From an uncultured Gammaproteobacteria bacterium (lineage in GTDB: Bacteria > Patescibacteriota > Microgenomatia > Levybacterales > UBA12049), in contig CAZAZU010000001.1 in NCBI GenBank assembly GCA_964490105.1, forward strand, positions 580,174-644,173: a stretch of 64,000 nucleotides of DNA, written 5' to 3'. The position numbers and the translations under genes were made by a program. The notes beneath the pieces are model-generated. The model saw nothing but the letters and a program-made list of their open reading frames with translations. It made no database searches and was not told the DNA's origin. Position 1 is the stretch's first letter. Each line of letters begins with the position of its first letter. Of the stretch, positions 3,507 through 61,863 are shown piece by piece.

Positions 3507-4940
3507 TTATTTTTCAATAGTTGGTTTGGGACTAAAACCAGAAAGCACCTCAAGGTAACCTTCAATTAAATTATCAGATGATGAATCCGGATTTAAATTA
3601 TCCAAAATACTATTAATTAGATCTCTGAGTACTGCGTTTGAATTATCATTCAATCCGTTATCAAAAGTCCCATCTACAAACGGCGAAGAACCTGCTGTTA
3701 AAGACTGATCCGCAAAAACAAAGCTTTCAGTATTTTTAAGATCCGCCATAACCCCCTTATGCCCCGGGGGCTGACCTAGTCCTCTTTTCTTTAACTGCTC
3801 TTGATAAATCTTTCTCTGAGTATCCTCTTCTGCCAAAAACTGAATGAACCTAAGCGCTTCCTTCTGGTTTTTACTTTGCGCTGATACTCCGTCTGCCCAA
3901 TAACTTGCAATATTTTTTCTGCTGTCAGTTAAGAGCTGTGGAACTGGAAAAATTTTAAATTCTACATTTGGATTCTTTGCCTTAATTTCAAAATAGTCCC
4001 AATAGTACCCAAAATACATTGCTAGTTTGCCTTGAGTGAATGCGCTTAGAGATGGATCGAGTGTCGTATTCCATACTGCATTTTCAGTTAATGCAAATGT
4101 CGTATAAAATCTTAATGCATCAGAAATTTTTTCAGGAAAATCTGAGATATTTTCAAAATCTACTCCATTTTGAACAAAGAGAAGAGAAATTATGTCCGGA
4201 GCGTGATTCACATTATCATATGTTCCAATCGCCGCCCCACCCACCGCAATTCTTCCCGACTCATCCCTTTTCGTAAGTATTTCTGATGCATCGATGAATT
4301 CTTGCCATGTCGCTGGCGGAGTCGCAGTAGCTTCAGCGAACAATGAAGTATTAACATATAGAGCTAGGGTGTCAGTTTCCGCGGGAATTCCGTAAATCGC
4401 TCCGTTTTTTATAAGATCTTCTTGAGCCACATTATAAAAACTTTCATTAAATTTATTTCTATCAATCGTTTCTTTAGGCAGAGGAAGAAGATCGTTTCTT
4501 AACATAGGAAACCAAGTATTGTGATACTTAAAAACATCAGGACCATTACCGGTACTAATTCTAGTAGTAAGTTTCTCCCTATAATCTTTTGGGTCTTGCA
4601 TAGAATATTCAATATTTATATTTGGATTTTTACTTTCAAATTCTTTTATAACCGGTTCCAAAACCGACGCGTCCTCTTTAATTCCCCAATAGATTAGAGT
4701 TACATTTTTCTCTTTAGAATTTAATCTCGGTAATAACAAAGAAATAATGACAAATATTATTGTTAGTAGAACAAATAGAAATATACCAATTTTTATTAAT
4801 CTTTTTGGATGAAACCCAGAAGGCTTATCCTCGCTTTTTTCCTTACTTGGATTTGTATAGGAAACCTGTGGTTGCACTGCCGGCGGGGCGTTATTCTGGG
4901 TAGCAGGAATACCTTCCTGAAAAATCGTTCCTTCTGGCAT
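3507..4940 (-). CDS. Membrane-anchored extracellular solute-binding protein (ABC-type, family 1, sugar-like)
   Basis: 477 aa. N-terminal cytoplasmic tail plus one TM (IGIFLFVLLTIIFVIISLLL), then an SBP_bac_1-like domain (NVTLIYWGIKED...PDVFKYHNTWF). No permease or ATPase genes adjacent. Confidence 0.6.
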   Translation of the reverse strand: MPEGTIFQEGIPATQNNAPPAVQPQVSYTNPSKEKSEDKPSGFHPKRLIKIGIFLFVLLTIIFVIISLLLPRLNSKEKNVTLIYWGIKEDASVLEPVIKEFESKNPNINIEYSMQDPKDYREKLTTRISTGNGPDVFKYHNTWFPMLRNDLLPLPKETIDRNKFNESFYNVAQEDLIKNGAIYGIPAETDTLALYVNTSLFAEATATPPATWQEFIDASEILTKRDESGRIAVGGAAIGTYDNVNHAPDIISLLFVQNGVDFENISDFPEKISDALRFYTTFALTENAVWNTTLDPSLSAFTQGKLAMYFGYYWDYFEIKAKNPNVEFKIFPVPQLLTDSRKNIASYWADGVSAQSKNQKEALRFIQFLAEEDTQRKIYQEQLKKRGLGQPPGHKGVMADLKNTESFVFADQSLTAGSSPFVDGTFDNGLNDNSNAVLRDLINSILDNLNPDSSSDNLIEGYLEVLSGFSPKPTIEK

Positions 4941-13140: not shown

Positions 13141-13155
13141 TATGGTATAATTCAT

Positions 13156-13513
13156 GTGCCGGGAAGAAGATCTGCTACTACGTTCAGTTAAATGAACGTA
13201 GAGGAAAGTCCAGACAGATCTTAAAACGGGGATGGAGCATAAGCTCCGACTAGCAATAGCTGGTGATCAAATTCTTACCCTATTAAACGGAATTTGATAC
13301 AGGTTTTGAATTGACAAAACTTGAGAGCAACAGAGACGAATAGGGGTGAAACGGGCAATCCTACCTGCTGCAACCTATGACCGATGCGTTTGAGCTTTTT
13401 TAAGGCGAGCATCAAAAATAGGGCATCCTGATAATATCAGGGCAAGTGACTAAGCATCACATTGAGAAAGATTGCAGAATAAAACAGAATCTGGCTTACT
13501 ACCTTCCCGGCAA
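13156..13513 (+). ncRNA. rnpB: RNase P RNA, bacterial type A
   Basis: P4 strands: 5' GAGGAAAGTCCAGACAG and 3' ACAGAATCTGGCTTAC. AGGGGTGAAACGG motif. P1 formed by GCCGGGAAG...CTTCCCGGC. About 358 nt, GC-rich relative to the genome. Confidence 0.8.
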
Positions 13514-13515
13514 TT

Positions 13516-13788
13516 TTACTTCACTGCTTTTTTAAGAGTTTTTCCAGGAGTAAAACCAGGCGCACGACGAGCGGGTAGTGTAATTTTTTCTCCGGTTTTT
13601 GGATTTCTCCCAGGGCGCTCCGATCTGTTTCTTATGCTAAATGTTCCGAAGCCTGTGATTACCACTTTTTCACCTCTTTTTAAAGAATCTCTAATTCCAT
13701 TTAACATCGCAGTTACAGAATCACCTGCTGCTTTATTTGTTAAGTTTGCTTTTTTAGCAACTACAACTATTAAGTCTTTTTTTGTCAA
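13516..13788 (-). CDS. hup: DNA-binding protein HU
   Basis: 90 aa: MTKKDLI...GFGTFSIRNRSERPGRNPKTGEKI, the conserved HU/IHF arm. Confidence 0.85.
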   Translation of the reverse strand: MTKKDLIVVVAKKANLTNKAAGDSVTAMLNGIRDSLKRGEKVVITGFGTFSIRNRSERPGRNPKTGEKITLPARRAPGFTPGKTLKKAVK

Positions 13789-13893
13789 AGATAATCACCT
13801 CCCTTAGTAAATTCAAAATAAATTAATTTGAAGAATTGGCCGATTAGACTAACAATACAGGGCAAACGAATATGCTGTCAAGAGGGATGAAAT

Positions 13894-17827: not shown

Positions 17828-18574
17828 ATGAAAGATCTTTCTCAGAAAAAAGAAGAAGCTATAAAAAAATTCCCAGTACTCGGAAAAATCCCCGATGAAA
17901 ATTTCCCAGAACACATTTTTATAATTCCTGATGGAAATAGAAGGTTTGCTAAGAATAATAATAGGCCCTCGTTTTGGGGACATGAAAAAGGATTTAAAGT
18001 AGCCATTAATTTACTTAGATTTTTTAGACCATTCTCCATAAAAACAGTTACACTTTGGGGATTTTCATCAGATAACTGGAAAAGAGATGAGTCTGAAATT
18101 AATAATTTAATGCGAATTTTTGGATTTATAATTGATAATTATTTAGATGAAATTAAAGAATATAATTCAAGATTTGTTCACCTTGGACGTCGTGACAGAT
18201 TGCCAAAAAAATTACTTGAAAAAATAGAAAAAGCAGAAGAAGAAACTAAAAATAATACGGGCCAAATAGTTTGCCTTGCTCTAGATTTTGGCGGAGAAGA
18301 CTCAAATGTTAGGACTGCAAAAAAAGCGCGCGAAACAAGTATTGAAATTGACGAGGAGTCTATTTGGAAATTAAGAGATACCGAAGGCTTGATTAGATCT
18401 GCAGATTTAATTTTTAGAACATCAGAGAGAAGGACATCTGACATAGGCTTTCTGAACGGAAAACATTCAGTGTTATATTTTGCAGAAGAAAAATTATTCC
18501 CAGAGGTAACTGAGGAAGATTTAGTAAAAGCAATTAATTACTATTCCCAAACAAAAAGAAATGAAGGGAAATAA
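17828..18574 (+). CDS. uppS: Undecaprenyl diphosphate synthase (cis-isoprenyl transferase)
   Basis: 248 aa: IIPDGNRRFAKNN...GHEKGF...TLWGFSSDNWKR, the UppS signature. Confidence 0.85.
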   Translation: MKDLSQKKEEAIKKFPVLGKIPDENFPEHIFIIPDGNRRFAKNNNRPSFWGHEKGFKVAINLLRFFRPFSIKTVTLWGFSSDNWKRDESEINNLMRIFGFIIDNYLDEIKEYNSRFVHLGRRDRLPKKLLEKIEKAEEETKNNTGQIVCLALDFGGEDSNVRTAKKARETSIEIDEESIWKLRDTEGLIRSADLIFRTSERRTSDIGFLNGKHSVLYFAEEKLFPEVTEEDLVKAINYYSQTKRNEGK

Positions 18575-33595: not shown

Positions 33596-34386
33596 TACTT
33601 AACACTCCTCTTTACACCGTTTGACGGTGCTAATACTTCTACAGATTCTTTCATAAATAATAAATTTTTATGTTTTAAAACTTCATAAGTATTTAAAAGC
33701 TTTGCATTTATAATCTCCACATTTTTAATATTTCGACTAGCATTATAAACATTTGGAAGTTCTTTTGGAGCACCGGAAATAACTAACAAAACTCTTCCCT
33801 TTCCTTTTTTATCTTCTGTAACTTTCGAAATTAATTGATACATATTTTTTGTTTTTGCTTCAATCTTATTAACTCCAGAAAGCACTTTTATGTCTCCGTC
33901 CGCTGCTCTTTGTGATAATGCTGAAAGAAGTGCAGCTTTTTTCATTTTTTGTGGCATAGCCAACGAATAATCCCTAAGCTTTGGTCCATGAGCTACTCCT
34001 CCTTTAACAAAAATTGGAGCTCTCTTTCCTCCGTGTCTAGCTCCACCTGTTCCTTTTTGTCTATAAATCTTTTTAGTTGATCCTGTGACTTCTCCTCTTG
34101 TCTGAGTTACTGCAGTTCCAAGTCTTTGATTTGCGAGATAAACTCTAACAGCTTGTGCCATAAGAACATTGTTAACTTTCACACCAAACACATCTTTTGG
34201 AAGAGAGAAAGTTCCAGCTTTTGCGCCTTTTACATCAAACATAGGAGCATTCAAGCCTGATACTTTTACAGTCTTTACTGCTGATTCTACTTTTTCTGTT
34301 TTTGCCGCTTTTTCAGCTGCCACTTTTTTTACTACTGCTTTTTTAGGAGCTGCTTTTGTTGTTTTTGAAACTTTACTTGTTGCCAT
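33595..34386 (-). CDS. rplD: 50S ribosomal protein uL4 with Lys/Ala-rich N-terminal extension
   Basis: 263 aa. The uL4 core (KKIYRQKGTGGARHGGKRAPIFVKGGVAHGPK) follows a roughly 40-aa low-complexity N-terminus. Confidence 0.9.
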   Translation of the reverse strand: MATSKVSKTTKAAPKKAVVKKVAAEKAAKTEKVESAVKTVKVSGLNAPMFDVKGAKAGTFSLPKDVFGVKVNNVLMAQAVRVYLANQRLGTAVTQTRGEVTGSTKKIYRQKGTGGARHGGKRAPIFVKGGVAHGPKLRDYSLAMPQKMKKAALLSALSQRAADGDIKVLSGVNKIEAKTKNMYQLISKVTEDKKGKGRVLLVISGAPKELPNVYNASRNIKNVEIINAKLLNTYEVLKHKNLLFMKESVEVLAPSNGVKRSVK

Positions 34387-35263
34387 CTTCTTCTCCTTCT
34401 TTTACTTCTCCTGCTGGTGTCTCCGAAACCTCTTCTTTTACCTCTTCAACCTGAGTATCTTCTGTTTTAGCTTCTTCTGTATTTTCTGAAGCCTCAACTT
34501 TTTCTTCCTCTTTTGGCTCTTCAACTACTTCTTCTGCTTTTTCCTCAACTGGAGCCTCAGCTTTTTGTGCTTCTGCTAATGATGCTTCTTCAGCTGCAAC
34601 TATTTCTGGATCCTTAAAAAGAGGAACGAATTTTTTGTCTTCCCCCGTTTTTTCAATCTTAATTAATGCATTTATTACTCCCGGAACTAATCCTTTAATT
34701 ACTAAAACTCCGTCATTTGTTACATCAACTACTTTTAGCCCCCTAACTGTTACCGTGTCATTTCCCATGTTTCCAGCCATTCTTTTTCCTTTATAAACTC
34801 TTCCTGGAGTTGTACCCTGTCCGATAGAACCTGGAGCTCTATGTCTATCAGATTGTCCGTGAGTTTTAGGACCTCCGCGGAAACCATATCTCTTTACTCC
34901 TCCTTGAAATCCCTTACCCTTTGATGTTCCAGTAACGTCAACTATATCTCCTGGCTGAAATACTTCTTGGGGATTTAATGCGATTCCAACTTCTGGAAGA
35001 GAGGAGTCATCCTTAATTCTGACCTCTTTTAAAAATTTAGGGGCTTGTTCTCTTTTAGCCCCTTTTGCGTGACCCAATAATGCTTTGTTTGCGTTTTTCT
35101 TAATCCCATATCCAAGTTGCACAGCTTGGTAGTGATCGCGTTCGTTAGTCTTTACTGACATGACCCAGTTATCTTTAACATCAATAAGAGTAACCGGAAT
35201 TCTCATTCCGTTTTCTAAAAATCTTTGACTCTGTACTTTTTTTATACCTATTAGAGACTGCAT
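34373..35263 (-). CDS. rplC: 50S ribosomal protein uL3 with acidic Glu/Lys-rich C-terminal extension
   Basis: 296 aa: MQSLIGIKKVQSQRF... the uL3 core, then about 70 aa of EEKAEEVVEEPKEEEKVE... tail. Confidence 0.9.
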   Translation of the reverse strand: MQSLIGIKKVQSQRFLENGMRIPVTLIDVKDNWVMSVKTNERDHYQAVQLGYGIKKNANKALLGHAKGAKREQAPKFLKEVRIKDDSSLPEVGIALNPQEVFQPGDIVDVTGTSKGKGFQGGVKRYGFRGGPKTHGQSDRHRAPGSIGQGTTPGRVYKGKRMAGNMGNDTVTVRGLKVVDVTNDGVLVIKGLVPGVINALIKIEKTGEDKKFVPLFKDPEIVAAEEASLAEAQKAEAPVEEKAEEVVEEPKEEEKVEASENTEEAKTEDTQVEEVKEEVSETPAGEVKEGEEDGNK

Positions 35264-35288
35264 ATATATTCAAAGGTTTTTTACAAAC

Positions 35289-35312
35289 AAAAAAGCGACC
35301 ACATAGTGTCGC
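35289..35312 (-). terminator. Intrinsic-terminator-like hairpin plus U6 inside the rplC leader; candidate attenuator
   Basis: Minus strand: GCGACactatgtgGTCGC followed by TTTTTT, 25 nt upstream of the rplC ATG and downstream of the predicted promoter. Confidence 0.45.
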
Positions 35313-35394
35313 TCTATTCAGGTAAGAATAAAAACTCAAACAGTAACTATGTAGCTATCACCTCCTGTGTTTGTAAAGCCATTTTGTACCTGTA

Positions 35395-35423
35395 ATTATA
35401 TCTAAGCTCGTGCGTAAATGCAA
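35395..35423 (-). promoter_or_regulatory. Sigma70-like promoter for the rplC-led r-protein operon: TTGCAT-17 nt-TATAAT
   Basis: On the minus strand: ttgcat ttacgcacgagcttaga tataat, with an exact 17-nt spacer. It lies about 130 nt upstream of the rplC ATG. Confidence 0.5.
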
Positions 35424-35480
35424 TAGGAAATGGGGAAGGACGATATGCTTATGAATTGATTTACCAATCAACACTATAGG

Positions 35481-35509
35481 TTGACTATTTTTATAAAAAT
35501 CTGTATAAT
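35481..35509 (+). promoter_or_regulatory. Consensus sigma70-like promoter TTGACT-17 nt-TATAAT driving the 35519 gene as a leaderless mRNA
   Basis: ttgact atttttataaaaatctg tataat. The ATG at 35519 begins 9 nt after the -10, so there is no SD and an essentially leaderless transcript. Confidence 0.55.
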
Positions 35510-35518
35510 TCGCGGATC

Positions 35519-35818
35519 ATGTCGGACATTCCATCAAGAAGAGTTACCTTAACTACAGAAGAAGCAAGAGAAGCTACCTCATTACTGCGCGCTGCAGGAT
35601 TAGGTGGGGAACTTGCTAAGCTATCAGGCAAACTTCCAATCGTAAGAACTCAAATTCTACATAGGGCGGCAGCCGGATTATCGCAAACCCATACATTTGA
35701 CGGAACTCCAAGTGGATTCAGAGCTCTAATCGGGGCGCCAATTCAAGATGCTGATTTAGGATCTTGGAGACAGACTATCATAGAACAGACTCGAAGACCT
35801 GGAAAAGAATCATTTTAA
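35519..35818 (+). CDS. Hypothetical small protein of atypical (Ala/Gly/Arg-rich) composition; no recognisable domain
   Basis: 99-aa ORF with a canonical ATG and a strong upstream promoter. Its codon and amino-acid composition differ from the Lys/Ile/Asn-rich host proteome. Confidence 0.4.
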   Translation: MSDIPSRRVTLTTEEAREATSLLRAAGLGGELAKLSGKLPIVRTQILHRAAAGLSQTHTFDGTPSGFRALIGAPIQDADLGSWRQTIIEQTRRPGKESF

Positions 35819-35828
35819 GCCTCTTATT

Positions 35829-37433
35829 TTAATATCCTCCCTGCTCAAATCTAGCTTTTAATTCCGGTCTAAAACCAAATTCCTCGTTTATTGCATTTCT
35901 GTATACCTTTAAAACAGGCAACTTCTCACCTTCACATTTCTTTAAAGTATATATTCCAGTATAGTAAGTGTCTGAGGCGGGAAAAGTTATTTCCTGTTTA
36001 AAAAATCTTTCCATTCCCAATAATTCATTTGATCTAGTCACAAAATATGCCGGAAATTCTGATGACATACAATCAAATTTTTCAAGTCCATTAAAAAGCT
36101 TAGAATCAATCCTTAAGGTTAATAAATTATCTGTTTTAAGTGAATAAACATTAATTGCGTCTTCAGGATTTCCCGCATTTAATCCAAAAAATATAAAGGC
36201 TGGTTTTCCATTTGCATCTTTTTCAATAAAATTCATTGCATCATTTATTCCAACCCCTGAAGTTTGTCCCTGTAAATATTCTGCCTCAGAAAATCTAGTG
36301 AATTTTGATAGATTCGTTAGATACGACATAGGACTAAAAATTAGAAATGATGAAGCGACAAAAGGAATTGAGATCGACAAAATTACAATTATTTTTTTAT
36401 ATAATTTTCCTCTCCATAAGCTTCCCAAAAAGTAAGATGAAGAAATAATTATAAAGACTAGAAAAGGAACAATATATCTAGTGCTTTGTGACTTGGTCAG
36501 TAATATTTCAAGAATTAATATCGAAAGAAAGAAAGCAATAAATATTTTAAAATTCTTTATTTTACTCTTTATCATTAAAAAAATTCCCAAAAAACCTGTT
36601 ACAAAAATGAAAGGAGTTAAAAGAAAAAATCCTATTTCAAAAAAACCAAGGAAATTATTTATCCATGCGCTAACAGGAAAACTTAATAATTCCGAAAACG
36701 TAAAAGAATATCTACTATTTGAGGCTAAAGTATTCCAAAAAACCGGATTAATTAAAATTAAAAAATCCACAGAAATTAAAGAAGCTAAAGAAATTAAAGA
36801 AGGCTTCAATAAATCATTTTTCCTTTTCCAATATATGTAAAAAGAAATTATAATTCCAGAAATTAAAATAAATAAAAAAGAATTAGATTTTATAAATACT
36901 CCAAGACCTAAAATAATTCCTAGAATCGCTCCGTTCTTGTTTGTTGGCTTTTCAATTAAATTTAAAAGCGAATAGAACACCCAAATCCCAATACAGATAA
37001 TTCCGCTTTCAAGAAGAGCTTGTCTATTATAAAAAACAAAAATTGGGGAAATTGAAAAAATAATTGAGGCTAAGTAAGCCGAATTTTTATTAAAAATTTT
37101 CTTTGTAACTAAATATATTCCAATAAGTGAAATTCCTCCGGCAATTACCGACACAAGTCTTCCAGCAAAAAGCGGATCAAAAAAATTACTGAAAATTCCA
37201 AAAAACCAAAGCATTAACGGCTGTTTGCCATCAAACATCGAATCGTATTCGTGTCCTGCCCAATGAGTCTGAATCCATCCCCAACTAAGATAAATTGATT
37301 CGTCGTTAAAAATTGGCAAGCGTGTAAGATTTATGAGATTGAAGACAAAGTAGAAAACGAGGATTAGAAGAATAAACTTGTTAATTAATATCCACTTTTT
37401 AAGCCGATTATATAATTTAAAGCCTTGAGGCAT
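35829..37433 (-). CDS. GT-C fold glycosyltransferase (PMT/ArnT-like, GT39/GT83 type) integral membrane protein
   Basis: 534 aa with at least 11 TM. First-loop DE motif (LPIFNDESIYLSWGW) as in dolichyl-phosphate-mannose protein mannosyltransferases/ArnT. Large C-terminal extracytoplasmic domain. Confidence 0.6.
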   Translation of the reverse strand: MPQGFKLYNRLKKWILINKFILLILVFYFVFNLINLTRLPIFNDESIYLSWGWIQTHWAGHEYDSMFDGKQPLMLWFFGIFSNFFDPLFAGRLVSVIAGGISLIGIYLVTKKIFNKNSAYLASIIFSISPIFVFYNRQALLESGIICIGIWVFYSLLNLIEKPTNKNGAILGIILGLGVFIKSNSFLFILISGIIISFYIYWKRKNDLLKPSLISLASLISVDFLILINPVFWNTLASNSRYSFTFSELLSFPVSAWINNFLGFFEIGFFLLTPFIFVTGFLGIFLMIKSKIKNFKIFIAFFLSILILEILLTKSQSTRYIVPFLVFIIISSSYFLGSLWRGKLYKKIIVILSISIPFVASSFLIFSPMSYLTNLSKFTRFSEAEYLQGQTSGVGINDAMNFIEKDANGKPAFIFFGLNAGNPEDAINVYSLKTDNLLTLRIDSKLFNGLEKFDCMSSEFPAYFVTRSNELLGMERFFKQEITFPASDTYYTGIYTLKKCEGEKLPVLKVYRNAINEEFGFRPELKARFEQGGY

Positions 37434-37535
37434 AAATTAATGCTAACATCCTGTTTTTTAATTAGCAATAAAATAAATGCATGATATATCAATATATGAA
37501 CAATTTTTGCGTCAAGAAAGTGAGCTTTTTTGGTG

Positions 37536-37871
37536 TTAAAAAATAAATAAGGAAGGGAGGAAGACAGCTGCGAAAATAACAATTAAAACTATGACTACTA
37601 CCAGATACATTCTCCTTGTTCTCTTAGTAAGACTTTGCATCACTACCGCATCCTGAGCATACTGAAAAATTCTATTACATTTCATGCAGCGGTAAGCGAC
37701 AACTCTTCTTAAATCCTCAAAATTTGATTCTGTTACTGCTAATTTAAAATTCCGTGAGTCATCCGGAATATTGTTACTCTTGGCATAACGCTGGATAATA
37801 ACAGCTCCATATGTTGTATCAAGCATAACTCCATTCTCAAAATCTCCACCGCAATCGGGACAATTCTTCAT
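37536..37871 (-). CDS. Zinc-ribbon protein (CxxC...CxxC) with C-terminal TM anchor; hypothetical
   Basis: 111 aa: MKNCPDCGG...YRCMKCNRIF, then a TM (YLVVVIVLIVIFAAVFLPSLFIF). Confidence 0.45.
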   Translation of the reverse strand: MKNCPDCGGDFENGVMLDTTYGAVIIQRYAKSNNIPDDSRNFKLAVTESNFEDLRRVVAYRCMKCNRIFQYAQDAVVMQSLTKRTRRMYLVVVIVLIVIFAAVFLPSLFIF

Positions 37872-37957
37872 AGCTAAATTATTTCAAGGGGGAATAATAA
37901 AGTCAATGGGTGCACCAAATCAAACAATTATGGAATTAAAACAAAATAAATTGTAGT

Positions 37958-38485
37958 TTATGCGGAGGCTGCTGCTCTTCGCGGGAATTTAGACAAAATC
38001 GGTGAGTTTGTGTGCCTAACCATATATTCATAAAAATCAGTTCCTCGTGTGGGAATATAATTTGGTCCAGGCACAAATTCAACTTCAATACCTCTTCTTC
38101 TATTCAATTGACCTGGATTAAATAATGAAGCTAGAAATCCTATCATTTGTTCAGGTGTTTGTGCGCTGAATCTCCAACTATCTCCCTCTGGAGTAAATCC
38201 GCGAAATGTATATTTTCGTTCTTGAATACGATCAAATGAGAGTAGGGGTTCATGATGTAAATGACCACCGCGAACTACATGAACGGCACTTAACTCATTT
38301 TCATCCCCAAATTCATGACCCGAATAATGCTTAACCGTTAAATGCGCCTTACTATCTGGAATTTTTATTACAGCTGATTTCCTTCCATAGCCTTCATAAC
38401 TTCTTATCGATCTATCTGGAGAAATATTCACTAATTTACCAAGACCTAGGGAAAAATTTCTTAAAGTTCTATATTCTGCACTCAT
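37958..38485 (-). CDS. Hypothetical protein, moderately GC-enriched; His-rich motif GGHLHHEP
   Basis: 175-aa ORF with no confidently recognisable domain. Confidence 0.4.
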   Translation of the reverse strand: MSAEYRTLRNFSLGLGKLVNISPDRSIRSYEGYGRKSAVIKIPDSKAHLTVKHYSGHEFGDENELSAVHVVRGGHLHHEPLLSFDRIQERKYTFRGFTPEGDSWRFSAQTPEQMIGFLASLFNPGQLNRRRGIEVEFVPGPNYIPTRGTDFYEYMVRHTNSPILSKFPRRAAASA

Positions 38486-38517: not shown

Positions 38518-38826
38518 CTACATTCTAATTTCTATATTTACTCCCGCTGGAAGTTCGAGGTGACCCAGAGAATCCATAGTTTTTTCTGTAGGGCTGACAA
38601 TATCTATTAATCTTTTATGAACTTTAATTTCGAAATGATCTCTGGCGTCTTTATCGATGAAAGGGGATTTGTTTACAGCGTAAACTGATCTTTTAGTAGG
38701 TAAGGGAATTGGGCCCACAACTTTAGCACCGGTCCTGATGGCCGTATCTAAAATTTGCTGACAACTAGCGTCGATGACTCTAGCGTCGTAGCTCTTTAAG
38801 CGAACTCGAATTCTACCTTTTGGCAT
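38518..38826 (-). CDS. rpsJ: 30S ribosomal protein uS10
   Basis: 102 aa: RIRVRLKSYDARVIDASCQQILDTA...IKVHKRLIDI. Separated from rplC by about 3.2 kb of inserted genes. Confidence 0.9.
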   Translation of the reverse strand: MPKGRIRVRLKSYDARVIDASCQQILDTAIRTGAKVVGPIPLPTKRSVYAVNKSPFIDKDARDHFEIKVHKRLIDIVSPTEKTMDSLGHLELPAGVNIEIRM

Positions 38827-38853: not shown

Positions 38854-40035
38854 TTATTTAATAACTTTTGTAACTACTCCTGCTCCAACTGTTTTTCCAC
38901 CTTCTCGGACTGCGAACCTAACTCCTTCTTCAAGAGCTACTGGAGCGATAAGTTTTACTGTCATTTTTGTTGAGTCTCCAGGCATAACCATTTCTACCCC
39001 TGATGGAAGAGTAGCTTCTCCTGTTACGTCTGTTGTTCTGATATAAAATTGTGGTCTGTATCCTGTGAAGAAAGGTGTGTGACGTCCTCCCTCTTCTTTT
39101 GTAAGAATATAGATTTCAGCTTCAAATTCTGTGTGCGGAGTAATAGATCCTGGCTTTGCAAGAACCTGTCCTCTTTCAACATCGTCTTTTTCAATTCCTC
39201 GAATTAATACTCCTACATTATCTCCTGCTTGACCTTCATCTAGCATCTTATGGAACATTTCTACTCCGGTTACAACTGTATTTGCTGTAGCTTTAATTCC
39301 AACGATTTCTACTGCTTCGTTTACTTTAACTACTCCTCTTTCAATTCTTCCAGTTACAACTGTTCCGCGTCCTTTAATTGAGAAAACGTCTTCAACAGGC
39401 ATAAGGAATGGCTTAGCTGTATCTCTAACTGGAGTTGGAATATCTTTATCTACTGCTTCCATTAAAGCTAATATTTGCTTTTCTGCTTCTGCGTCTCCTT
39501 CAAGAGCTTTAAGAGCTGATCCTCTTACGATTGTAACTGTGTCTCCAGGATATTCATATTTAGTAAGTAATTCTCTTACTTCCATTTCAACTAAATCTAG
39601 GAGTTCTGCGTCTTGAACCATATCTACTTTATTAAGCCATACCACAATTGAAGGTACTCCAACCTGGCGTGCTAATAGAATGTGTTCTCGTGTTTGAGGC
39701 ATAGGACCGTCTGGAGCTGAAACTACTAAGATAGCTCCGTCCATTTGTGCTGCTCCTGTAATCATGTTCTTGATGTAATCTGCGTGTCCTGGAGCGTCGA
39801 TGTGAGCATAGTGTCTGTTAGCTGTTTCGTATTCTACGTGAGTAATATTAATCGTGACTCCGCGTGCTTTTTCTTCTGGAGCATTATCAATATCCTCATA
39901 CTTCATAGCTTTTGCTCCGCCAGTCTTAGAAAGAACTGTAGCAATAGCTGCAGTAGTAGTAGTCTTACCATGGTCAACGTGACCAATAGTTCCTATGTTT
40001 ACGTGTGGTTTTGATCTGTCAAATTTATCTGCCAT
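38854..40035 (-). CDS. tuf: Elongation factor Tu
   Basis: [26 protein letters not shown]... The track ORF begins 5 codons earlier (MVFLIM); the conserved N-terminus indicates a start at 40035. Confidence 0.95.
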
Positions 40036-40039
40036 AATT

Positions 40040-40064
40040 AAAAAAACCATCAGCCATTTGATGG
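40040..40064 (-). terminator. 5'-terminal stem-loop plus U7 tract in the tuf leader (terminator-like; possible attenuator or 5' stabiliser)
   Basis: Minus strand: CCATCAaatggcTGATGG then TTTTTTT, 4 nt before the tuf ATG. No SD. Confidence 0.45.
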
Positions 40065-40071
40065 TAAAAAG

Positions 40072-40100
40072 AATATACTACACTTTTCAGAAATCGTCAA
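40072..40100 (-). promoter_or_regulatory. Sigma70-like promoter for tuf: TTGACG-17 nt-TATATT
   Basis: Minus strand: ttgacg atttctgaaaagtgtag tatatt. The predicted TSS falls at the base of the hairpin immediately upstream of tuf. Confidence 0.5.
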
Positions 40101-47638: not shown

Positions 47639-49774
47639 TTATTCAACTCTTCCCGTGAAGGTGGAGGCGGCTTTCATTTGAGCCTGAATGTTTTGTGGAA
47701 CTTCATCATAGTGCGAAGGCTCCATGTAATACGAAGCTCTTCCCTGAGTCATAGACCTTAAGATCGTAGCGTATCCTGATAATTCTGAGAGAGGAACCAT
47801 AGCGTTAATGATTGTCGCTTTTCCTCGATCTTCACTTCCGGAAATCTGTGCTCTTTTACTAGACAAATCTCCAATTACATCTCCTAAAAATTCTGATGGA
47901 GTTGTAACTTCTACCTTCATAATAGGCTCTAAAAGTGTAAGTTTTGCATTTTGAGCTGCTATTTGAAGGGCTTTTGAAGCTGCAATTTTGAATGCGATTT
48001 CTGAAGAGTCCACGTCATGGAAAGATCCATCATAAACTTCTACACTCATATCTACCACAGGGTATCCTAAGTAAATTCCGTTTTCCTCAGACTCGATTAC
48101 TCCTTTTTGAATAGCTTTTATAAACTCTGCAGGAATTGCTCCTCCCTTAATACTATCTATAAATTCATTTCCCTCTCCTCTTGGTTTTGGCTTGATTCTT
48201 AAGAAACAGTGTCCGTACTGTCCGCGTCCTCCAGACTGACGAATATATTTTCCTTCTCCTGTTGCTTCTTCTTTAATTGTTTCTTTATAAGCTACCTGAG
48301 GAGCTCCTACATTAGCTTCAACTCCAAAGTCTGATTTCATAGTATTAACTTTAACCTCAAGCTGAAGCTCTCCAACCCCTGAGATAATAGTCTGATTTGT
48401 TTCATGATTTGTTTTAACCTGGAAAGTTGGATCTTCGTCCATAAGGCGCTTTAATGCTATGCCGAGCTTCTCCTGATCTGATTTAGTCTTTGGTTCAATT
48501 GCTAAAGAAATAACAGGTTCTGGGAAAGTAATTTTTTCTAAAACTATTGGATTTGCTTCATCACAAAGTGTATCTCCTGTGATGGTTTCTTTAAGTCCTA
48601 CAATTGCGACGATTTCTCCTGCATACGCCTCGTCAATTTCTTCTCTTTGATTTGAATGCATAAGAAGAAGACGGCCAACGCGCTCTGTATTATCTTTTGT
48701 AGAGTTATAAATATAACTTCCAGATTTAATTTTTCCAGAATAAACTCTATAAAAAGTTAATTTTCCAACGTGAGGATCATTTTGAATTTTAAAAGCAAGC
48801 CCTGCAAGAGGAGCATCTGCTACTAGCTGGCGGGTTTCTTCTGCATCAGTTTTAGGATTTATTCCTTTTACTTCTTTAAGATCTACTGGGGATGGCAGAT
48901 ATTCAACAACAGCGTCAAGAAGTGGCTGTACTCCTTTGTTTCGAAGAGAAGTACCTGCATAAATTGGAACTAATTTATATGCGATAACTGCGCGTCTCAA
49001 TGCCGCTCTTAGTTCTTCAACACTTGGCTCTGTTCCATTTAAGTATTTATCTAGTAATGCGTCATCTGTTTCTGAAATTTTTTCAATAAGTTTATGTCTA
49101 TACTCATCAACTGCCACTTTCATTTCCTCTGGAATATCATCATTTACTTCGTATTTTGCTCCTAATTCATCTCCGCCCCATCTGATTGCTTTGCGGGTTA
49201 AAAGGTCAACGTTTCCTACATAAGTTTGCTCACTTCCAATTGGAAGAACCATGATTGCGGTATTTGCTCCAAGCCTGTCTTCAATAGATTTAACAGTAGC
49301 TAAAAAATCCGCTCCTAGTTTATCCATTTTGTTGATGAAACAAATTCTAGGAACCTTATATTTATCAGCTTGTCTCCAAACTGTTTCTGACTGGGATTGA
49401 ACTCCCTCTTCTGCGTCAAGAACTGTAATTCCTCCGTCCAAAACTCTTAGAGAGCGCTCTACTTCAGCTGTAAAGTCTACGTGACCTGGAGTATCAATAA
49501 TGTTAAATCTGTGCTCTATGCCCTTTTGTGAGCCTTCAGTTGGGGTCCAGAATGCAGTAGTAGCAGCACTTACAATGGTAATTCCGCGCTCTCTTTCTTC
49601 CTTCATCCAGTCCATGACTGTATTTCCCTCATCGATATCTCCGATTTTGTGAGTTTTTCCAGTGTAGTAAAGAATGCGCTCTGTAGTGGTCGTTTTTCCC
49701 GCATCAATATGCGCGATAATTCCGATGTTTCGGATCTTTTCTAAATCAAAATGTCTATTAGATGAATCAGCCAT
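47639..49774 (-). CDS. fusA: Elongation factor G
   Basis: 711 aa: NIGIIAHIDAGKTTTTERIL... with the full EF-G domain set. Confidence 0.95.
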   Translation of the reverse strand: MADSSNRHFDLEKIRNIGIIAHIDAGKTTTTERILYYTGKTHKIGDIDEGNTVMDWMKEERERGITIVSAATTAFWTPTEGSQKGIEHRFNIIDTPGHVDFTAEVERSLRVLDGGITVLDAEEGVQSQSETVWRQADKYKVPRICFINKMDKLGADFLATVKSIEDRLGANTAIMVLPIGSEQTYVGNVDLLTRKAIRWGGDELGAKYEVNDDIPEEMKVAVDEYRHKLIEKISETDDALLDKYLNGTEPSVEELRAALRRAVIAYKLVPIYAGTSLRNKGVQPLLDAVVEYLPSPVDLKEVKGINPKTDAEETRQLVADAPLAGLAFKIQNDPHVGKLTFYRVYSGKIKSGSYIYNSTKDNTERVGRLLLMHSNQREEIDEAYAGEIVAIVGLKETITGDTLCDEANPIVLEKITFPEPVISLAIEPKTKSDQEKLGIALKRLMDEDPTFQVKTNHETNQTIISGVGELQLEVKVNTMKSDFGVEANVGAPQVAYKETIKEEATGEGKYIRQSGGRGQYGHCFLRIKPKPRGEGNEFIDSIKGGAIPAEFIKAIQKGVIESEENGIYLGYPVVDMSVEVYDGSFHDVDSSEIAFKIAASKALQIAAQNAKLTLLEPIMKVEVTTPSEFLGDVIGDLSSKRAQISGSEDRGKATIINAMVPLSELSGYATILRSMTQGRASYYMEPSHYDEVPQNIQAQMKAASTFTGRVE

Positions 49775-49791
49775 AAATTAAATAAAACTTT

Positions 49792-49830
49792 AAAAAAGCT
49801 CCCACAAATGGAAGCTAAATGAGTATACCA
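49792..49830 (-). promoter_or_regulatory. Extended -10 promoter (TGgTATACT) plus 5'-terminal stem-loop and U6 leader for fusA
   Basis: Minus strand: tgtggTATACTcatttaGCTTCCAtttgTGGGAGC TTTTTT aaagttttatttaat ATG. The hairpin has one mismatch. No SD. Confidence 0.45.
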
Positions 49831-59600: not shown

Positions 59601-60027
59601 TAACAAGCTGATTTACGATTGCGCGTTCAATTCCATTGATAATAAATGTTCCGCGTTCTGTCATTCTTGGGATATCTCCTAGGAAAACTTCTTGATCGAT
59701 TTCTGCTTCTGTTTTTTTGTTAGTGAGGGTTGCTTTTACATAAAGAGGTGCGTCGTAGGTGAGTCCTTTAATGAGACAAAGAGTAGGCTCATTAGTTGGC
59801 TTTCCAATTCTATAATCCTTAAGGGTAAGAGTCCAGTTTTTTCCTGTGAAATCATCAATAGGAGATATCTCCTGTAAAACTTCTCCTATTCCAACTTCTT
59901 CAAACCATTTGTATGATTCGTGTTGAACTGTGAGAAGATCTAGCTCAGGGAGAACTGGAAAATTCTTTCCCCAGTCTTCACGAAGCTTAAAATTTGTCTT
60001 ATTGTCTTTAGAATCGGATTTAGGCAT
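56596..60027 (-). CDS. rpoB: DNA-directed RNA polymerase subunit beta
   Basis: 1143 aa, conserved beta-subunit blocks throughout. Overlaps the rpoC start by 8 nt. Acidic C-terminal tail. Confidence 0.95.
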   Translation of the reverse strand: MPKSDSKDNKTNFKLREDWGKNFPVLPELDLLTVQHESYKWFEEVGIGEVLQEISPIDDFTGKNWTLTLKDYRIGKPTNEPTLCLIKGLTYDAPLYVKATLTNKKTEAEIDQEVFLGDIPRMTERGTFIINGIERAIVNQLVRSPGVFFTSTQDVVTGQTLYTAEIRPVHGSWLEFTTTRYETITVKIDRRRKFLASTFLRAIGVSDNDLIRSKFKDAEADGKTNFINNTLTKDETDSQNAALIEIFKKMHPGEPVVLDKVKENFFGMFFNNRRYDLGDVGRYKMNKKLKNVPGFNPTEEKILTIDDIIATISFLIALSKGQDGVDDIDSLANRRVRRVGELVASTAFRVGVLRLERSIKERMSLITPEVPVTIAGLINARPIMASINEFFRTSQLSTILDQTNPLSEIDNLNRLTVMGTGGISRERAAFSIRDINSSQYGRICPIRSPEGPNIGLVTYLALYSRVNQYGFLETPYRKVTHTKKGNKTVSTATNEIVYMAADDEREKYITHSDVLNEDQTITNERVPVRYKGEFIEVEKEKIEYIDVVPRQVVGTAASLIPFVSHDEANRALMGTHMQSQAVPLVIPQSPIVGTGMEKMVSQVMGRVARAPEDGEIVYADGDKVVFKGKGKEEITYKIESFQRTSQATAYTQRAMVTTGQKVKKGDLLVDGPSSQGGELALGQNLLIAYASYDGLGYEDAIVISDRLVKEDVLSSIHIEKYEAAVVETKLGPEETTRDIPNVSEEDLANLDEDGVVVLSSEVGPGDILVGKIAPKGETELTAEERLLRAIFGEQAREVRDTSLRMPNGERGTVISIQVLDRKKGDELEPGCLRKIIVEVAQFRHVVVGDKLAGRHGNKGVISKIVPVVDMPYLEDGTPVDIIISPVSVLARMNLGQLLEAHLGWAALVQGKKVGLPVFEKVDENNIIAELKASGLPENGKAKLYDSRTGEAYDGAVVVGVSYIMKLIHMVEDKTHARSTGPYSLVTQQPLGGKAQMGGQRLGEMEVWALESHRARYTLQEMLTIKSDDVVGRAKAFEAIVKGTAIPTPKVPESFKVLIKELQALGLNVVPMGAQIVAEPTMVEPMKEAKADEKIEEEAKEMEKELGGEDVVTEEAGVDEATASGEVEPSAADLEGVTEGEING

Positions 60028-60064: not shown

Positions 60065-60149
60065 AAAAAATGCACACAGGTGCATGAACCTTTCCGGCTT
60101 TTCGTCTTAAAGTAATCTACTTATATCATACGATCCAAGCGTGTGTCAA
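60065..60149 (-). promoter_or_regulatory. rpoB promoter (TTGACA-18 nt-TATAAG) with a leader hairpin plus U6 (attenuator-like) and an AAGGAG SD-like element
   Basis: Minus strand: ttgaca...tataag at 60120-60149; hairpin TGCACCtgtGTGCA then TTTTTT at 60065-60084; then ...ttaaggagctgcccgcttatatattttttgATG. Confidence 0.45.
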
Positions 60150-60666: not shown

Positions 60667-60673
60667 TTAATCT

Positions 60674-60762
60674 GCATTAAGAGAGTCCGATCAATATCGG
60701 ACCGGCAACCGAGCCCTTCGACCAGCTCAGGGACGCGGTGCCATTCCAAAAAGGAAATGCGG
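60674..60762 (+). promoter_or_regulatory. SAM-riboswitch-like leader (SAM-I core features, apparently P4-less SAM-I/IV-type) upstream of metK
   Basis: GCATT...AATGC (P1). AAGAGAG. Hairpin TCCGATcaatATCGGA (P2). GGCAACC. A GC-rich P3. GGTGCCATTCC. Then TTCC-AAAAA-GGAA, which could sequester the AAGGA SD of the metK ATG at 60766. Confidence 0.5.
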
Positions 60763-60765
60763 CTT

Positions 60766-61863
60766 ATGAGCAAAAATATTTTTACTTCTGAATCTGTTAG
60801 CAATGGCCACCCGGATAAAATCTGTGATTCTATTTCTGACTCCATTTTAGATGCTGTTCTTGCAAAAGATAAATTTGGAAAAGTCGCAGTTGAATGTCTC
60901 GCAGCAAACAACAAACTTATTATAGCTGGCGAAGTGACAACTAATGCCAAAATAGACTTTGAAAAAATCGCTAGAAAAAGAATAAAAGATTTAGGCTATA
61001 CAAATCCTGATTTTAATTTCTCAGACAAATCAGATATCGAAGTTTACGTTCATGAACAGTCTCCCGAAATAGCCCGTGGAGTCAAGAAAAAAGGAGCAGG
61101 AGATCAGGGAATGATGTTTGGATATGCGTGTAGGGAAACCAAAACTCTAATGCCTTTACCTATTTCTATGGCTCACAGACTCGCTGAAGAACTGGACAAA
61201 AGTAAACAAAAACTCAAATATTTAAAACCTGACGGAAAAACTCAAGTAACCATAGAATACAAGAATGGTGTTCCTTACGAAGTCAAACAAGTTGTTATAG
61301 CAGTTCCTCATGATGAAAAAATAAAACTTGAACAAGTAAGAGAGGATGTTTTCAAATACATAGTCAAACCAGTTTTAGACGGTTTTGGGTTTAAATTTTC
61401 AATAAAAGATTTGATTCTAAACGGCACAGGAGTTTGGCATATGCCTGGACCCTCTTCAGATGCCGGACTCACAGGACGAAAAATAATAGTTGATACCTAT
61501 GGAGGATACGCGAGAGTTGGTGGAGGAGCTTTTTCTGGAAAAGATCCCACAAAAGTAGATAGATCCGGCGCATATGCCGCTAGATTTTTAGCAAAAAATA
61601 TTGTGGCTGCAAAACTCGCAGACAGAGCGGAAGTCAGACTTGCCTATTTTATTGGAGCTAAAAAACCTGTTATGCAGGAAGTGGAAACATTCGGGACTGA
61701 GAAAACATCGGATAAAGTCATTAAAGATTTTATGAGAAAAATTCTTAATACATCAGTCGAGGGAATTATTGATGGCTTGGATCTTAGACAACCAATTTAT
61801 TTAAAAACATCTTCTTACGGTCACTTCGGCCGCCCGGAATTTCCTTGGGAAAGGCTAGTCTAA
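60766..61863 (+). CDS. metK: S-adenosylmethionine synthetase
   Basis: MSKNIFTSESVSNGHPDKICDSISD...GAGDQGMMFGYA...GGGAFSGKDPTKVDRS. Start taken at the second ATG, which has AAGGA about 11 nt upstream; the track ORF starts at 60757. Confidence 0.9.
   Translation: MSKNIFTSESVSNGHPDKICDSISDSILDAVLAKDKFGKVAVECLAANNKLIIAGEVTTNAKIDFEKIARKRIKDLGYTNPDFNFSDKSDIEVYVHEQSPEIARGVKKKGAGDQGMMFGYACRETKTLMPLPISMAHRLAEELDKSKQKLKYLKPDGKTQVTIEYKNGVPYEVKQVVIAVPHDEKIKLEQVREDVFKYIVKPVLDGFGFKFSIKDLILNGTGVWHMPGPSSDAGLTGRKIIVDTYGGYARVGGGAFSGKDPTKVDRSGAYAARFLAKNIVAAKLADRAEVRLAYFIGAKKPVMQEVETFGTEKTSDKVIKDFMRKILNTSVEGIIDGLDLRQPIYLKTSSYGHFGRPEFPWERLV

Follow-up and report, generated by a model that had tools for sequence, protein, structure and literature searches.

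A conserved leader RNA upstream of rplC in Candidatus Dojkabacteria is a candidate transcription attenuator

Introduction

How might a bacterium of the candidate phyla adjust the expression of its largest ribosomal-protein (r-protein) operon? The question is raised by a 64-kb stretch of DNA (35% G+C; hereafter the window, whose coordinates are those of the whole stretch) in which rplC, the gene for uL3, is preceded on the same, minus strand by a promoter, a mini-open reading frame (mini-ORF), a Shine–Dalgarno (SD)-like box and a terminator-like hairpin. An initial annotation had suggested that these elements form an attenuator reminiscent of the L4-controlled leader of the Escherichia coli S10 operon, and all the elements it listed were read directly in the sequence. 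The sources of the closest uL3 proteins give their origin as Candidatus Dojkabacteria (WS6), and GW2011_GWA2_37_6 is a WS6 genome, which places the organism in the candidate phyla radiation; in the literature we found no description of r-protein leaders in candidate-phyla bacteria. To judge from sequence comparison, the rplC leader constitutes a new RNA family, though its general kind, a putative ribosomal-operon leader attenuator, is a known one; its design is unusual. The elements that matter for the argument are as follows.

35418–35423, minus strand: leader promoter, −35 hexamer TTGCAT, read in the sequence and followed by a 17-nt spacer
35395–35400, minus strand: leader promoter, −10 hexamer TATAAT, invariant in 17/17 loci
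35285–35388, minus strand: conserved leader RNA, from the predicted transcription start site (TSS) near 35388 to just past the U-run; covariance model R1, 115.6 bits
35347–35382, minus strand: mini-ORF of 11 codons plus UAG, MALQTQEVIAT; AUG, frame and UAG kept in 17/17 loci
35357–35366, minus strand: orphan SD-like box AGGAGGUGAU, whose first 8 nt are the predicted antiterminator strand AT2
35346–35355, minus strand: predicted antiterminator strand AT1, GCUACAUAGU (end of the mini-ORF with its stop codon, plus 1 nt; leader nt 34–43)
35312–35333, minus strand: P2 hairpin between the antiterminator strands, two pairs of which show double (compensatory) changes
35289–35315, minus strand: putative intrinsic-terminator hairpin, core GCGAC, loop ACUAUGUG, GUCGC, plus U6; top terminator-like match
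35271–35288, minus strand: post-terminator segment (distal helix), predicted to pair with the 5′ part of the mini-ORF in the read-through RNA
34373–35263, minus strand: rplC (uL3, 296 aa; Pfam Ribosomal_L3), first gene of the operon presumed to be controlled

Results

Conservation of the leader

Given the predicted TSS near 35388, the leader measures about 125 nt up to rplC; its RNA core spans about 100 nt, and the block that runs from the promoter through the U-run about 135 nt. We retrieved 16 related Dojkabacteria/WS6 loci (designated below by L and a number) via their uL3 homologues, which are about 58–95% identical to the window's over the BLAST alignment, or 70–95% over the first 210 residues; with the window this makes 17 loci. 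In all 16 the same block, from TTGC(A/G)(T/A/C)-N17-TATAAT to the U-run, lies directly upstream of rplC. The leader RNA is 78–100% identical to that of the window in the 15 relatives compared; the first 630 nt of rplC reach a lower 73–88%, and the 100 nt upstream of the promoter about 60%, that is, background. Upstream genes vary by locus, and both flanks of the leader block differ between loci. Because the leader RNA is more conserved than the rplC DNA while its flanks are unrelated, we conclude that it is under selection. The leader of about 125 nt with an 11-codon ORF that had been predicted is thus present, provided that the TSS is indeed near 35388, and the mini-ORF and SD-like box, conserved as they are, are not due to chance.

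This comparison also bears on what the motifs are worth. In the AT-rich region, promoter-like matches number 47, against 35.4 ± 5.3 in shuffled sequences, and terminator-like matches 8, against 6.8 ± 2.7; since neither motif is commoner than in shuffles, the motifs alone are no evidence, and what speaks for their being real is, at the level of sequence, their conservation in 16 related loci with differing flanks. The initial annotation had counted two near-perfect promoters in the spacer, a description that suits the plus-strand promoter (11/12 consensus matches) and the minus-strand −10 hexamer; it overstates the minus-strand −35 hexamer, since TTGCAT is a 3/6 match to the E. coli TTGACA, and the leader promoter was not listed by a motif scanner. 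The −35 hexamer is nevertheless kept as TTGCA(T/A) in 16/17 loci (TTGCGC in L103). The spacer is always 17 nt long and variable in sequence, as are the 6 nt that follow the −10 hexamer; the conserved RNA begins directly after those 6 nt, at UACAA.

A complete promoter-to-terminator unit, extreme conservation and a conserved ORF frame might also denote an independent gene that happens to adjoin rplC, namely a small RNA of about 100 nt and/or an 11-residue micropeptide, rplC being transcribed otherwise; an inserted repeat of about 60–150 nt even parts the leader from rplC in L006, L007 and L095. We consider this highly improbable: the leader stands directly 5′ of rplC, on the same strand, in 17/17 loci despite differing upstream genes, the 25-nt gap between the U-run and the rplC ATG in the window is too small for another promoter (none fits), positions 2–6 of the peptide vary, and the default fold predicted for the RNA is the antiterminated one.

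The repeats just mentioned are palindromic, MITE-like (miniature inverted-repeat transposable element) sequences of about 60–150 nt located between the leader U-run and the rplC ATG (L006, ~3920–3990; L007, ~3875–3990; L095, ~2370–2490), with a remnant in L105 (~2470–2495). The L007 and L095 copies are homologous to one another. The repeats stretch the leader to about 185–275 nt and leave its conserved core untouched.

Searches for known relatives of the leader were negative. Over the whole window, Rfam (all curated families, release 15) at gathering thresholds returned only a tRNA and a SAM-I/IV riboswitch, and no r-protein leader; a permissive scan of 35150–35650 (E ≤ 10) returned only a long non-coding RNA region and a small nucleolar RNA, both from unrelated eukaryotic families and far below gathering scores. 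Model R1 found no other significant copy in the 64-kb window, its three further matches being at chance level (≤17 bits, E 0.14–1). A scan of viral contigs for the conserved leader core gave no match, and a metagenome scan via the uL3 alignment, with overly generic patterns, returned only relatives of ≤55% identity, none with the leader. T-box, riboswitch, 6S RNA, signal recognition particle RNA, transfer-messenger RNA and an alternative genetic code were dropped as candidates for want of a supporting feature or match.

Terminator and antiterminator folds

The terminator-like hairpin, AGAGCGAC-ACTATGTG-GTCGCTTT, occupies positions 35315–35292; its T-run extends to 35289, which leaves 25 nt up to the rplC ATG (35263), as the initial annotation had it. 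The 18-nt core, loop included, is identical in the window and 15/16 related loci, L106 carrying 2 changes; the hairpin, on whose conservation in relatives the annotation had made its proposal depend, is therefore conserved. Its predicted stability is about −10 to −12 kcal/mol. What generally characterizes an attenuator, a predicted intrinsic terminator between the promoter and the first gene, is thus kept in the sequence of 17 loci.

The initial annotation had not seen that, in the folding models, the SD-like box together with the last part of the mini-ORF makes up the antiterminator strand, whose partners are the loop and 3′ arm of the terminator and the U-tract. AT1 is predicted to pair with ACUAUGUGGU (35298–35307), i.e. 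the loop of the terminator plus the 2 nt that open its 3′ arm, and AT2, AGGAGGUG (nt 23–30), with CGCUUUUU, i.e. the end of the 3′ arm and the U-tract. The modelled pairing consumes the loop, the 3′ arm and the U-tract, and the two folds are consequently mutually exclusive, the second general characteristic of an attenuator.

Folding calculations favour the long-range pairing. The 125-nt leader of the window adopts it, and not the terminator, at −33.8 kcal/mol (shuffled sequences, −21.0 ± 3.4 kcal/mol; z = −3.75). The antiterminator is the minimum free energy (MFE) fold in all 12 distinct variants, the 11 others having z values of −1.6 to −5.2, and it is also the RNAalifold consensus. Within nt 1–100, the antiterminator helices plus P2 amount to −19.5 kcal/mol (MFE, −21.3 kcal/mol), compared with about −12 kcal/mol for the terminator state. 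AT1 pairing is already present in the MFE fold of transcripts of 89 and 92 nt, ahead of the complete terminator 3′ arm, and when pairing of nt 1–52 is forbidden in silico the terminator forms. Because the antiterminator fold is the more stable and its 5′ strand is transcribed first, the naked RNA is predicted to read through. Read-through would then be the default, and switching off is predicted to require something that occupies nt 23–43.

The alignment bears on these pairings to a variable extent. On the 12-sequence alignment, the pairs are intact in 98% of cells, compared with 44–63% for register-slid controls. The comparison of leaders that the initial annotation had called for as a source of covariation thus gave strong conservation and only partial covariation, with one double change in AT1 and two pairs in P2. 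In AT1, L106 has one U-A pair replaced by G-C, a compensatory change, and one A-U pair replaced by G·U; the remainder of AT1 and AT2 is invariant and speaks neither for nor against the pairing. In L102 and L106, P2 has a different sequence and the hairpin still folds. The distal helix appears in the MFE fold of the window leader and of 11 variants, with compensatory-looking cases in L097 and L101 (CAAAUAC::GUAUUUG), in L100 (CUAACA::UGUUAG) and in L104; we regard this modelled helix as suggestive only. A local P1 hairpin (CAAACA/UGUUUG) seen in the window was rejected, as it is not kept in L099, L100 and L103.

The Shine–Dalgarno-like box

The box, AGGAGGTGAT at 35366–35357, is the only exact copy of this sequence in the 64 kb, and no ATG, GTG or TTG lies at SD distance, that is, within 16 nt downstream; in this it matches the orphan perfect SD of the initial annotation. 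All its 10 nt are complementary to the canonical 16S 3′ end, which may not be the host's own, and pairing with the canonical anti-SD yields −17.6 kcal/mol, as much as for the strongest gene SD among 74 ORFs (median, −3.9 kcal/mol). The box is unchanged in the 17 loci except in L095 (~2250–2285), where a 33-nt G+C-rich hairpin inserted after its first 3 nt (AGG) splits it, leaving GAGAGGUGAU. The insertion is in frame: the mini-ORF becomes MASQTQAAGPRGPLARGEVIVAT followed by its stop codon, and AGGUGAU and the predicted antiterminator pairing stay intact. Furthermore, the three G·U pairs between GGAGG and the U-tract have never been ‘improved’ to A-U in the 12 distinct sequences, so that selection on GGAGG itself, beyond pairing, seems likely.

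An SD-like, start-less sequence in a predicted 5′ untranslated region (UTR), complementary to the canonical 16S 3′ end, is what defines a STAB-SD element at the sequence level. In cry3A, such a sequence near the 5′ end does not initiate translation, pairs with the 16S 3′ end, is thought to bind the 30S subunit and blocks RNase J1 (PMC4113751). The box could accordingly be a 5′ stabilizer of this type, a parked 30S subunit protecting the rplC-operon mRNA from 5′-to-3′ decay while the hairpin acts as a structural or translation-initiation element. The box lies 23 nt from the predicted 5′ end and is not followed by a start codon, which fits this idea, as does the presence of similar hairpin and U-run elements before the SD-less starts of tuf and fusA. 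We nonetheless find it improbable. It offers no reason why the box and the ORF end should be so precisely complementary to the loop and 3′ arm of the terminator and to the U-tract, nor why this complementarity is conserved and shows one compensatory change, and the box is paired, not exposed, in the predicted read-through fold. A STAB-SD stabilizes against RNase J1 and involves no switch; in the rplC leader, by contrast, the box would be an antiterminator strand.

The mini-ORF

The peptides encoded by the mini-ORF are MALQTQEVIAT, MAKQTQEVIAT, MALQIQEVIAT, MALLTQEVIAT, MAEQIQEVIAT and MASQTQEVIAT, and, among further relatives, MVRQAQEVIVAT, MPSKAMEVIVAT and MASQTQAAGPRGPLARGEVIVAT. Two indels fall within the mini-ORF, of 3 nt and 33 nt; elsewhere in the leader indels are of 1–2 nt. 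In L102, codons 2–6 have diverged at most positions, with the AUG and the ORF length retained. We found neither regulatory codons nor a conserved arrest peptide in the 17 loci. What the mini-ORF does share with leader-peptide attenuators, to judge from the sequence, is that a predicted translatable ORF overlaps the switch strands, here AT2 and AT1.

Translation from such a position would not be exceptional. An exact TATAAT lies 6–14 nt 5′ of the ATG of nine genes in the window, seven of them at 6–9 nt (at least those starting at 17828, 35519, 40818, 44071, 50399, 51379 and 62819) and two at 13–14 nt. Spacings of 6–9 nt imply, as far as sequence can tell, leaderless mRNAs, and given these spacings of 6–9 and 13–14 nt, translation from a very short 5′ UTR appears normal in this genome. 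Genes that lie inside operons of the window have GGAG/GAGG SDs. rplC lacks an SD in the window, and AGGAG or GAGG is found 8–11 nt upstream of it in some relatives.

Proposed mechanism and nature of the effector

We tentatively propose that the leader is a transcription attenuator of the rplC operon triggered by the ribosome, a possibility that we favour without regarding it as probable. In the OFF state, the GCGAC/GUCGC hairpin and U6 would terminate transcription 25 nt before rplC; in the ON state, the 5′ strand (AGGAGGUG, GCUACAUAGU) would pair with the terminator, with P2 in between, and allow read-through. A ribosome is proposed as the occupant of nt 23–43 because this segment combines a perfect start-less SD with the mini-ORF's last five sense codons and stop codon, plus 1 nt. 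Two forms are conceivable: a 30S subunit docked at the box, or a 70S ribosome that translates the mini-ORF as far as the UAG; either of them, the latter once it is there, would cover both antiterminator strands and let the terminator form. Plentiful free ribosomes would thus lead to termination and scarce ones to read-through, i.e. negative feedback on r-protein synthesis. Ribosome binding by the mini-ORF or the box, and this direction of regulation, are what we infer from the arrangement, along with the TSS and termination at the hairpin.

The same switch could respond instead to an r-protein encoded by the operon (uL4, uL3 or another primary rRNA binder) whose surplus over rRNA would bind to the conserved hairpin or to the 5′ strand, bring about the terminator fold and thereby exert autogenous control. 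Precedents exist in the E. coli S10 leader, where L4 brings about termination (PMC3616713), and in Bacillus subtilis infC, where L20 flips an antiterminator to a terminator (PMC1865079). The leader directly precedes rplC–rplD; the loop ACUAUGUG, identical in the window and 15/16 loci, and the invariant 5′ strand are typical of a protein-binding site; and a single significant copy in 64 kb that hold several other translation operons fits an operon-specific regulator. An r-protein effector is a serious rival that is, however, somewhat unlikely in our view, for the leader resembles neither the E. coli L4 leader nor any ribosomal leader in Rfam, and such an effector explains neither the exact 10-nt SD complement with its retained G·U pairs nor the AUG-to-UAG frame kept across 3-nt and 33-nt insertions. 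As to mimicry of rRNA, a blastn search of the leader against E. coli genomes, which covers the rRNA of E. coli only and not that of this lineage, gave no match.

Several points weigh against the ribosome-triggered attenuator. To begin with, the TSS, termination and read-through are predictions. The terminator is a weak one (5 G-C-rich pairs, 3 A-U/G·U pairs and an 8-nt loop). The antiterminator helices are almost invariant in the clade, which leaves covariation thin, with one double change, and the distal helix did not reach significance when cognate and non-cognate duplexes were compared (p about 0.095). The AUG of the mini-ORF lies 12 nt past TATAAT and 5–6 nt past the predicted TSS, without an SD, and is therefore not strictly leaderless. 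Residues 2–6 vary (A/V/P, L/K/E/S/R, Q/L/K, T/I/A, Q/M), the peptide not being conserved there; the conserved C-terminal EVI(V)AT coincides with RNA-constrained bases and could reflect constraint on the RNA alone; and conservation of the frame rests on just two indel events. Hairpin and U-run elements also stand just 5′ of tuf and fusA, whose starts lack an SD, and might be a general 5′-UTR feature. Precedent, finally, points to a ribosomal protein, and not the ribosome, as the usual controller of r-protein leaders (L4, PMC3616713; L20, PMC1865079).

The rpsJ–rplC junction

The divergent gene of the spacer and its promoter are the following.

35481–35509, plus strand: promoter TTGACT-17-TATAAT (11/12 consensus matches) for the gene at 35519–35818; conserved in L094
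35519–35818, plus strand: ORF for a 99-aa protein

The hexamers of this promoter lie at 35481–35486 (TTGACT) and 35504–35509 (TATAAT), on either side of the 17-nt spacer, and the ATG at 35519 is only 9 nt past the −10 hexamer, a leaderless-type arrangement. Pfam gave no match to the 99-aa protein, not even at E = 1. Of the loci in which the upstream region was examined, only L094, the closest relative sharing the island described below, showed the gene and its promoter.

On the other side, rplC is followed by rplD, rplW, rplB, then rpsS, rplV and rpsC, and after these by more co-directional ORFs. rpsJ (38518–38826) is located 3.25 kb upstream of rplC, after tuf. The intervening DNA contains a cargo island (35829–38485) encoding a 175-aa protein, a DUF6487 protein and a PMT_2 glycosyltransferase, as well as the plus-strand 99-aa gene. 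The initial annotation was thus right that rpsJ is no longer at the head of the operon, and the window's island is not the cause. Indeed, in L104, rpsJ lies 236 nt upstream of rplC with no island, and the promoter and leader are intact between the two genes; because promoter and leader are also kept in a locus with adjacent rpsJ, the island cannot account for the separation of the two genes. On this sequence evidence, the island is simply inserted upstream of the leader promoter, and a conserved promoter and leader belong to the rplC operon itself in the whole clade. That the operon has its own promoter and leader would in turn explain why the rpsJ–rplC junction tolerates the insertion of varied cargo.

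The junction is an insertion hotspot in the clade: the distance from rpsJ to rplC ranges from 236 nt (L104) to about 3.8 kb (L003, L006), and the cargo differs from relative to relative (PMT_2 glycosyltransferase, Zeta-toxin/AAA, NUDIX, PIN_3, peptide deformylase and Asp/Glu racemase among others). In the window, L003–L007 and L094–L106, it is always upstream of the leader promoter. uS10 is 96–100% identical across the relatives.

Analogous leaders in distant candidate phyla

In distant relatives (uL3 about 47–56% identical), the rpsJ–rplC spacer is 125–180 nt long, and several have a terminator just before rplC. Four of these loci (L008, L009, L022 and L027) carry GGAGGU(G/A) or UGAGGU(G/A) 68–95 nt upstream of rplC, a motif that is complementary to the terminator 3′ arm and U-tract, e.g. 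in L027 GGAGGUG::CACCUUU with GCCGG::CCGGC. The motif is within a short ORF in L008 (MPKSRIIKYEVNKA), L009 (MLELMITARNLDKEAMEVKTT) and L027 (MEVILAGK), each ending at a stop codon; none was found around the motif in L022. Applied to 86 distant loci, model R1 gave no match with default filters; with filters off, it gave weak matches at the right place in L009, L027 and L008 (E = 2.5–5.5) and did not pick out L022. To judge from their sequences, the four leaders are analogues whose homology to the rplC leader is uncertain.

Other elements in the window

Hairpins followed by U-runs were also seen before other translation genes. The tuf start in the ORF list (40050) is 5 codons too early, as the N-terminus of EF-Tu begins at 40035 (minus strand); upstream of it (40035–40100, minus strand) lie a promoter-like TTGACG-17-TATATT and then a hairpin ACCAUCAAAUGGCUGAUGGU plus U7, 4 nt before an SD-less AUG. 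A terminator-like hairpin plus U5 precedes fusA (49792–49816, minus strand; about 18 nt before the SD-less start at 49774), and another precedes rpoB (60065–60085, minus strand; about 40 nt before the start at 60027), where it is followed by TATATT 6 nt before the ATG. The fusA and rpoB hairpins may be inter-cistronic attenuators, as at E. coli rplL–rpoB, or belong to a general 5′-UTR design.

The SAM-I/IV riboswitch (60669–60787, plus strand; 48.7 bits) lies in front of metK (60757–61863); the mechanical ORF start of metK overlaps the aptamer by about 30 nt, and the true start is probably further downstream. Finally, about 750 nt at 13141–13893 have no long ORF and no Rfam match; they include a 90-aa TTG-initiated ORF (13516–13788, minus strand) with a strong GGGAGGTGAT SD 5 nt upstream.

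Discussion

The likeness to the E. coli S10 leader that the initial annotation invoked is real in three respects: both are 5′ leaders of an S10-type r-protein cluster, both have an intrinsic terminator and U-run a few tens of nt before the first cistron, and feedback on r-protein synthesis is the expected purpose of both. The E. coli leader, however, precedes rpsJ, comprises five hairpins (HD and HE being essential), is found in Gammaproteobacteria only and acts via L4 and NusA-dependent pausing, without an antiterminator (PMC3616713). By contrast, the rplC leader precedes rplC and comprises one internal hairpin, a terminator, a long-range antiterminator, a mini-ORF and an orphan SD; neither the position at the head of the S10 operon before rpsJ nor the five-hairpin architecture is found in its sequence and predicted structure. 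Of the L4/S10-like attenuator, the attenuator part therefore stands, on a conserved predicted terminator and a mutually exclusive fold, and the homology does not: with no Rfam match, another architecture and a location that is not before rpsJ, homology to the E. coli leader is excluded on sequence grounds.

The leader of B. subtilis infC–rpmI–rplT is comparable in logic, being a translation-operon leader with an antiterminator/terminator switch in which the effector leads to termination (PMC1865079). That leader, of about 200 nt, responds to L20 through mimicry of 23S rRNA and has neither a mini-ORF nor an SD-like box; it belongs to a different operon and a different phylum, and its sequence is unrelated. 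Leader-peptide attenuation of the trp type offers another parallel, in that a short 5′ ORF overlaps the antiterminator strand and a ribosome at the stop codon covers that strand, which favours the terminator. The rplC leader differs from it in lacking regulatory codons as well as a ‘region 1’ that would impose termination without translation; the predicted signal would be the mere presence of a ribosome, and the target an r-protein operon. We found no precedent in the literature for ribosome-mediated attenuation of an r-protein operon.

Taken at its broadest, the proposal is that the leader directly senses free ribosomes through the start-less SD within its near-leaderless mini-ORF as the site of ligand binding, docking of 30S or 70S removing the antiterminator strand and thereby terminating transcription of the main r-protein operon, with looser versions in other candidate-phyla lineages. 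In this extended form we hold it to be doubtful. The design itself would be unusual, the antiterminator strand being a perfect start-less SD within a conserved mini-ORF. As the 30S subunit of E. coli has the same anti-SD, the idea of a ribosome signal can be tested in vitro or with a heterologous reporter despite the organisms being uncultured. If it is true, ribosome synthesis would be fed back by the assembled ribosome itself, and not by a single free r-protein. How ribosome synthesis is kept in balance in the candidate phyla (Patescibacteria) appears to be undescribed, and the leader would act across the clade as a cis-regulator of the largest of their r-protein operons.

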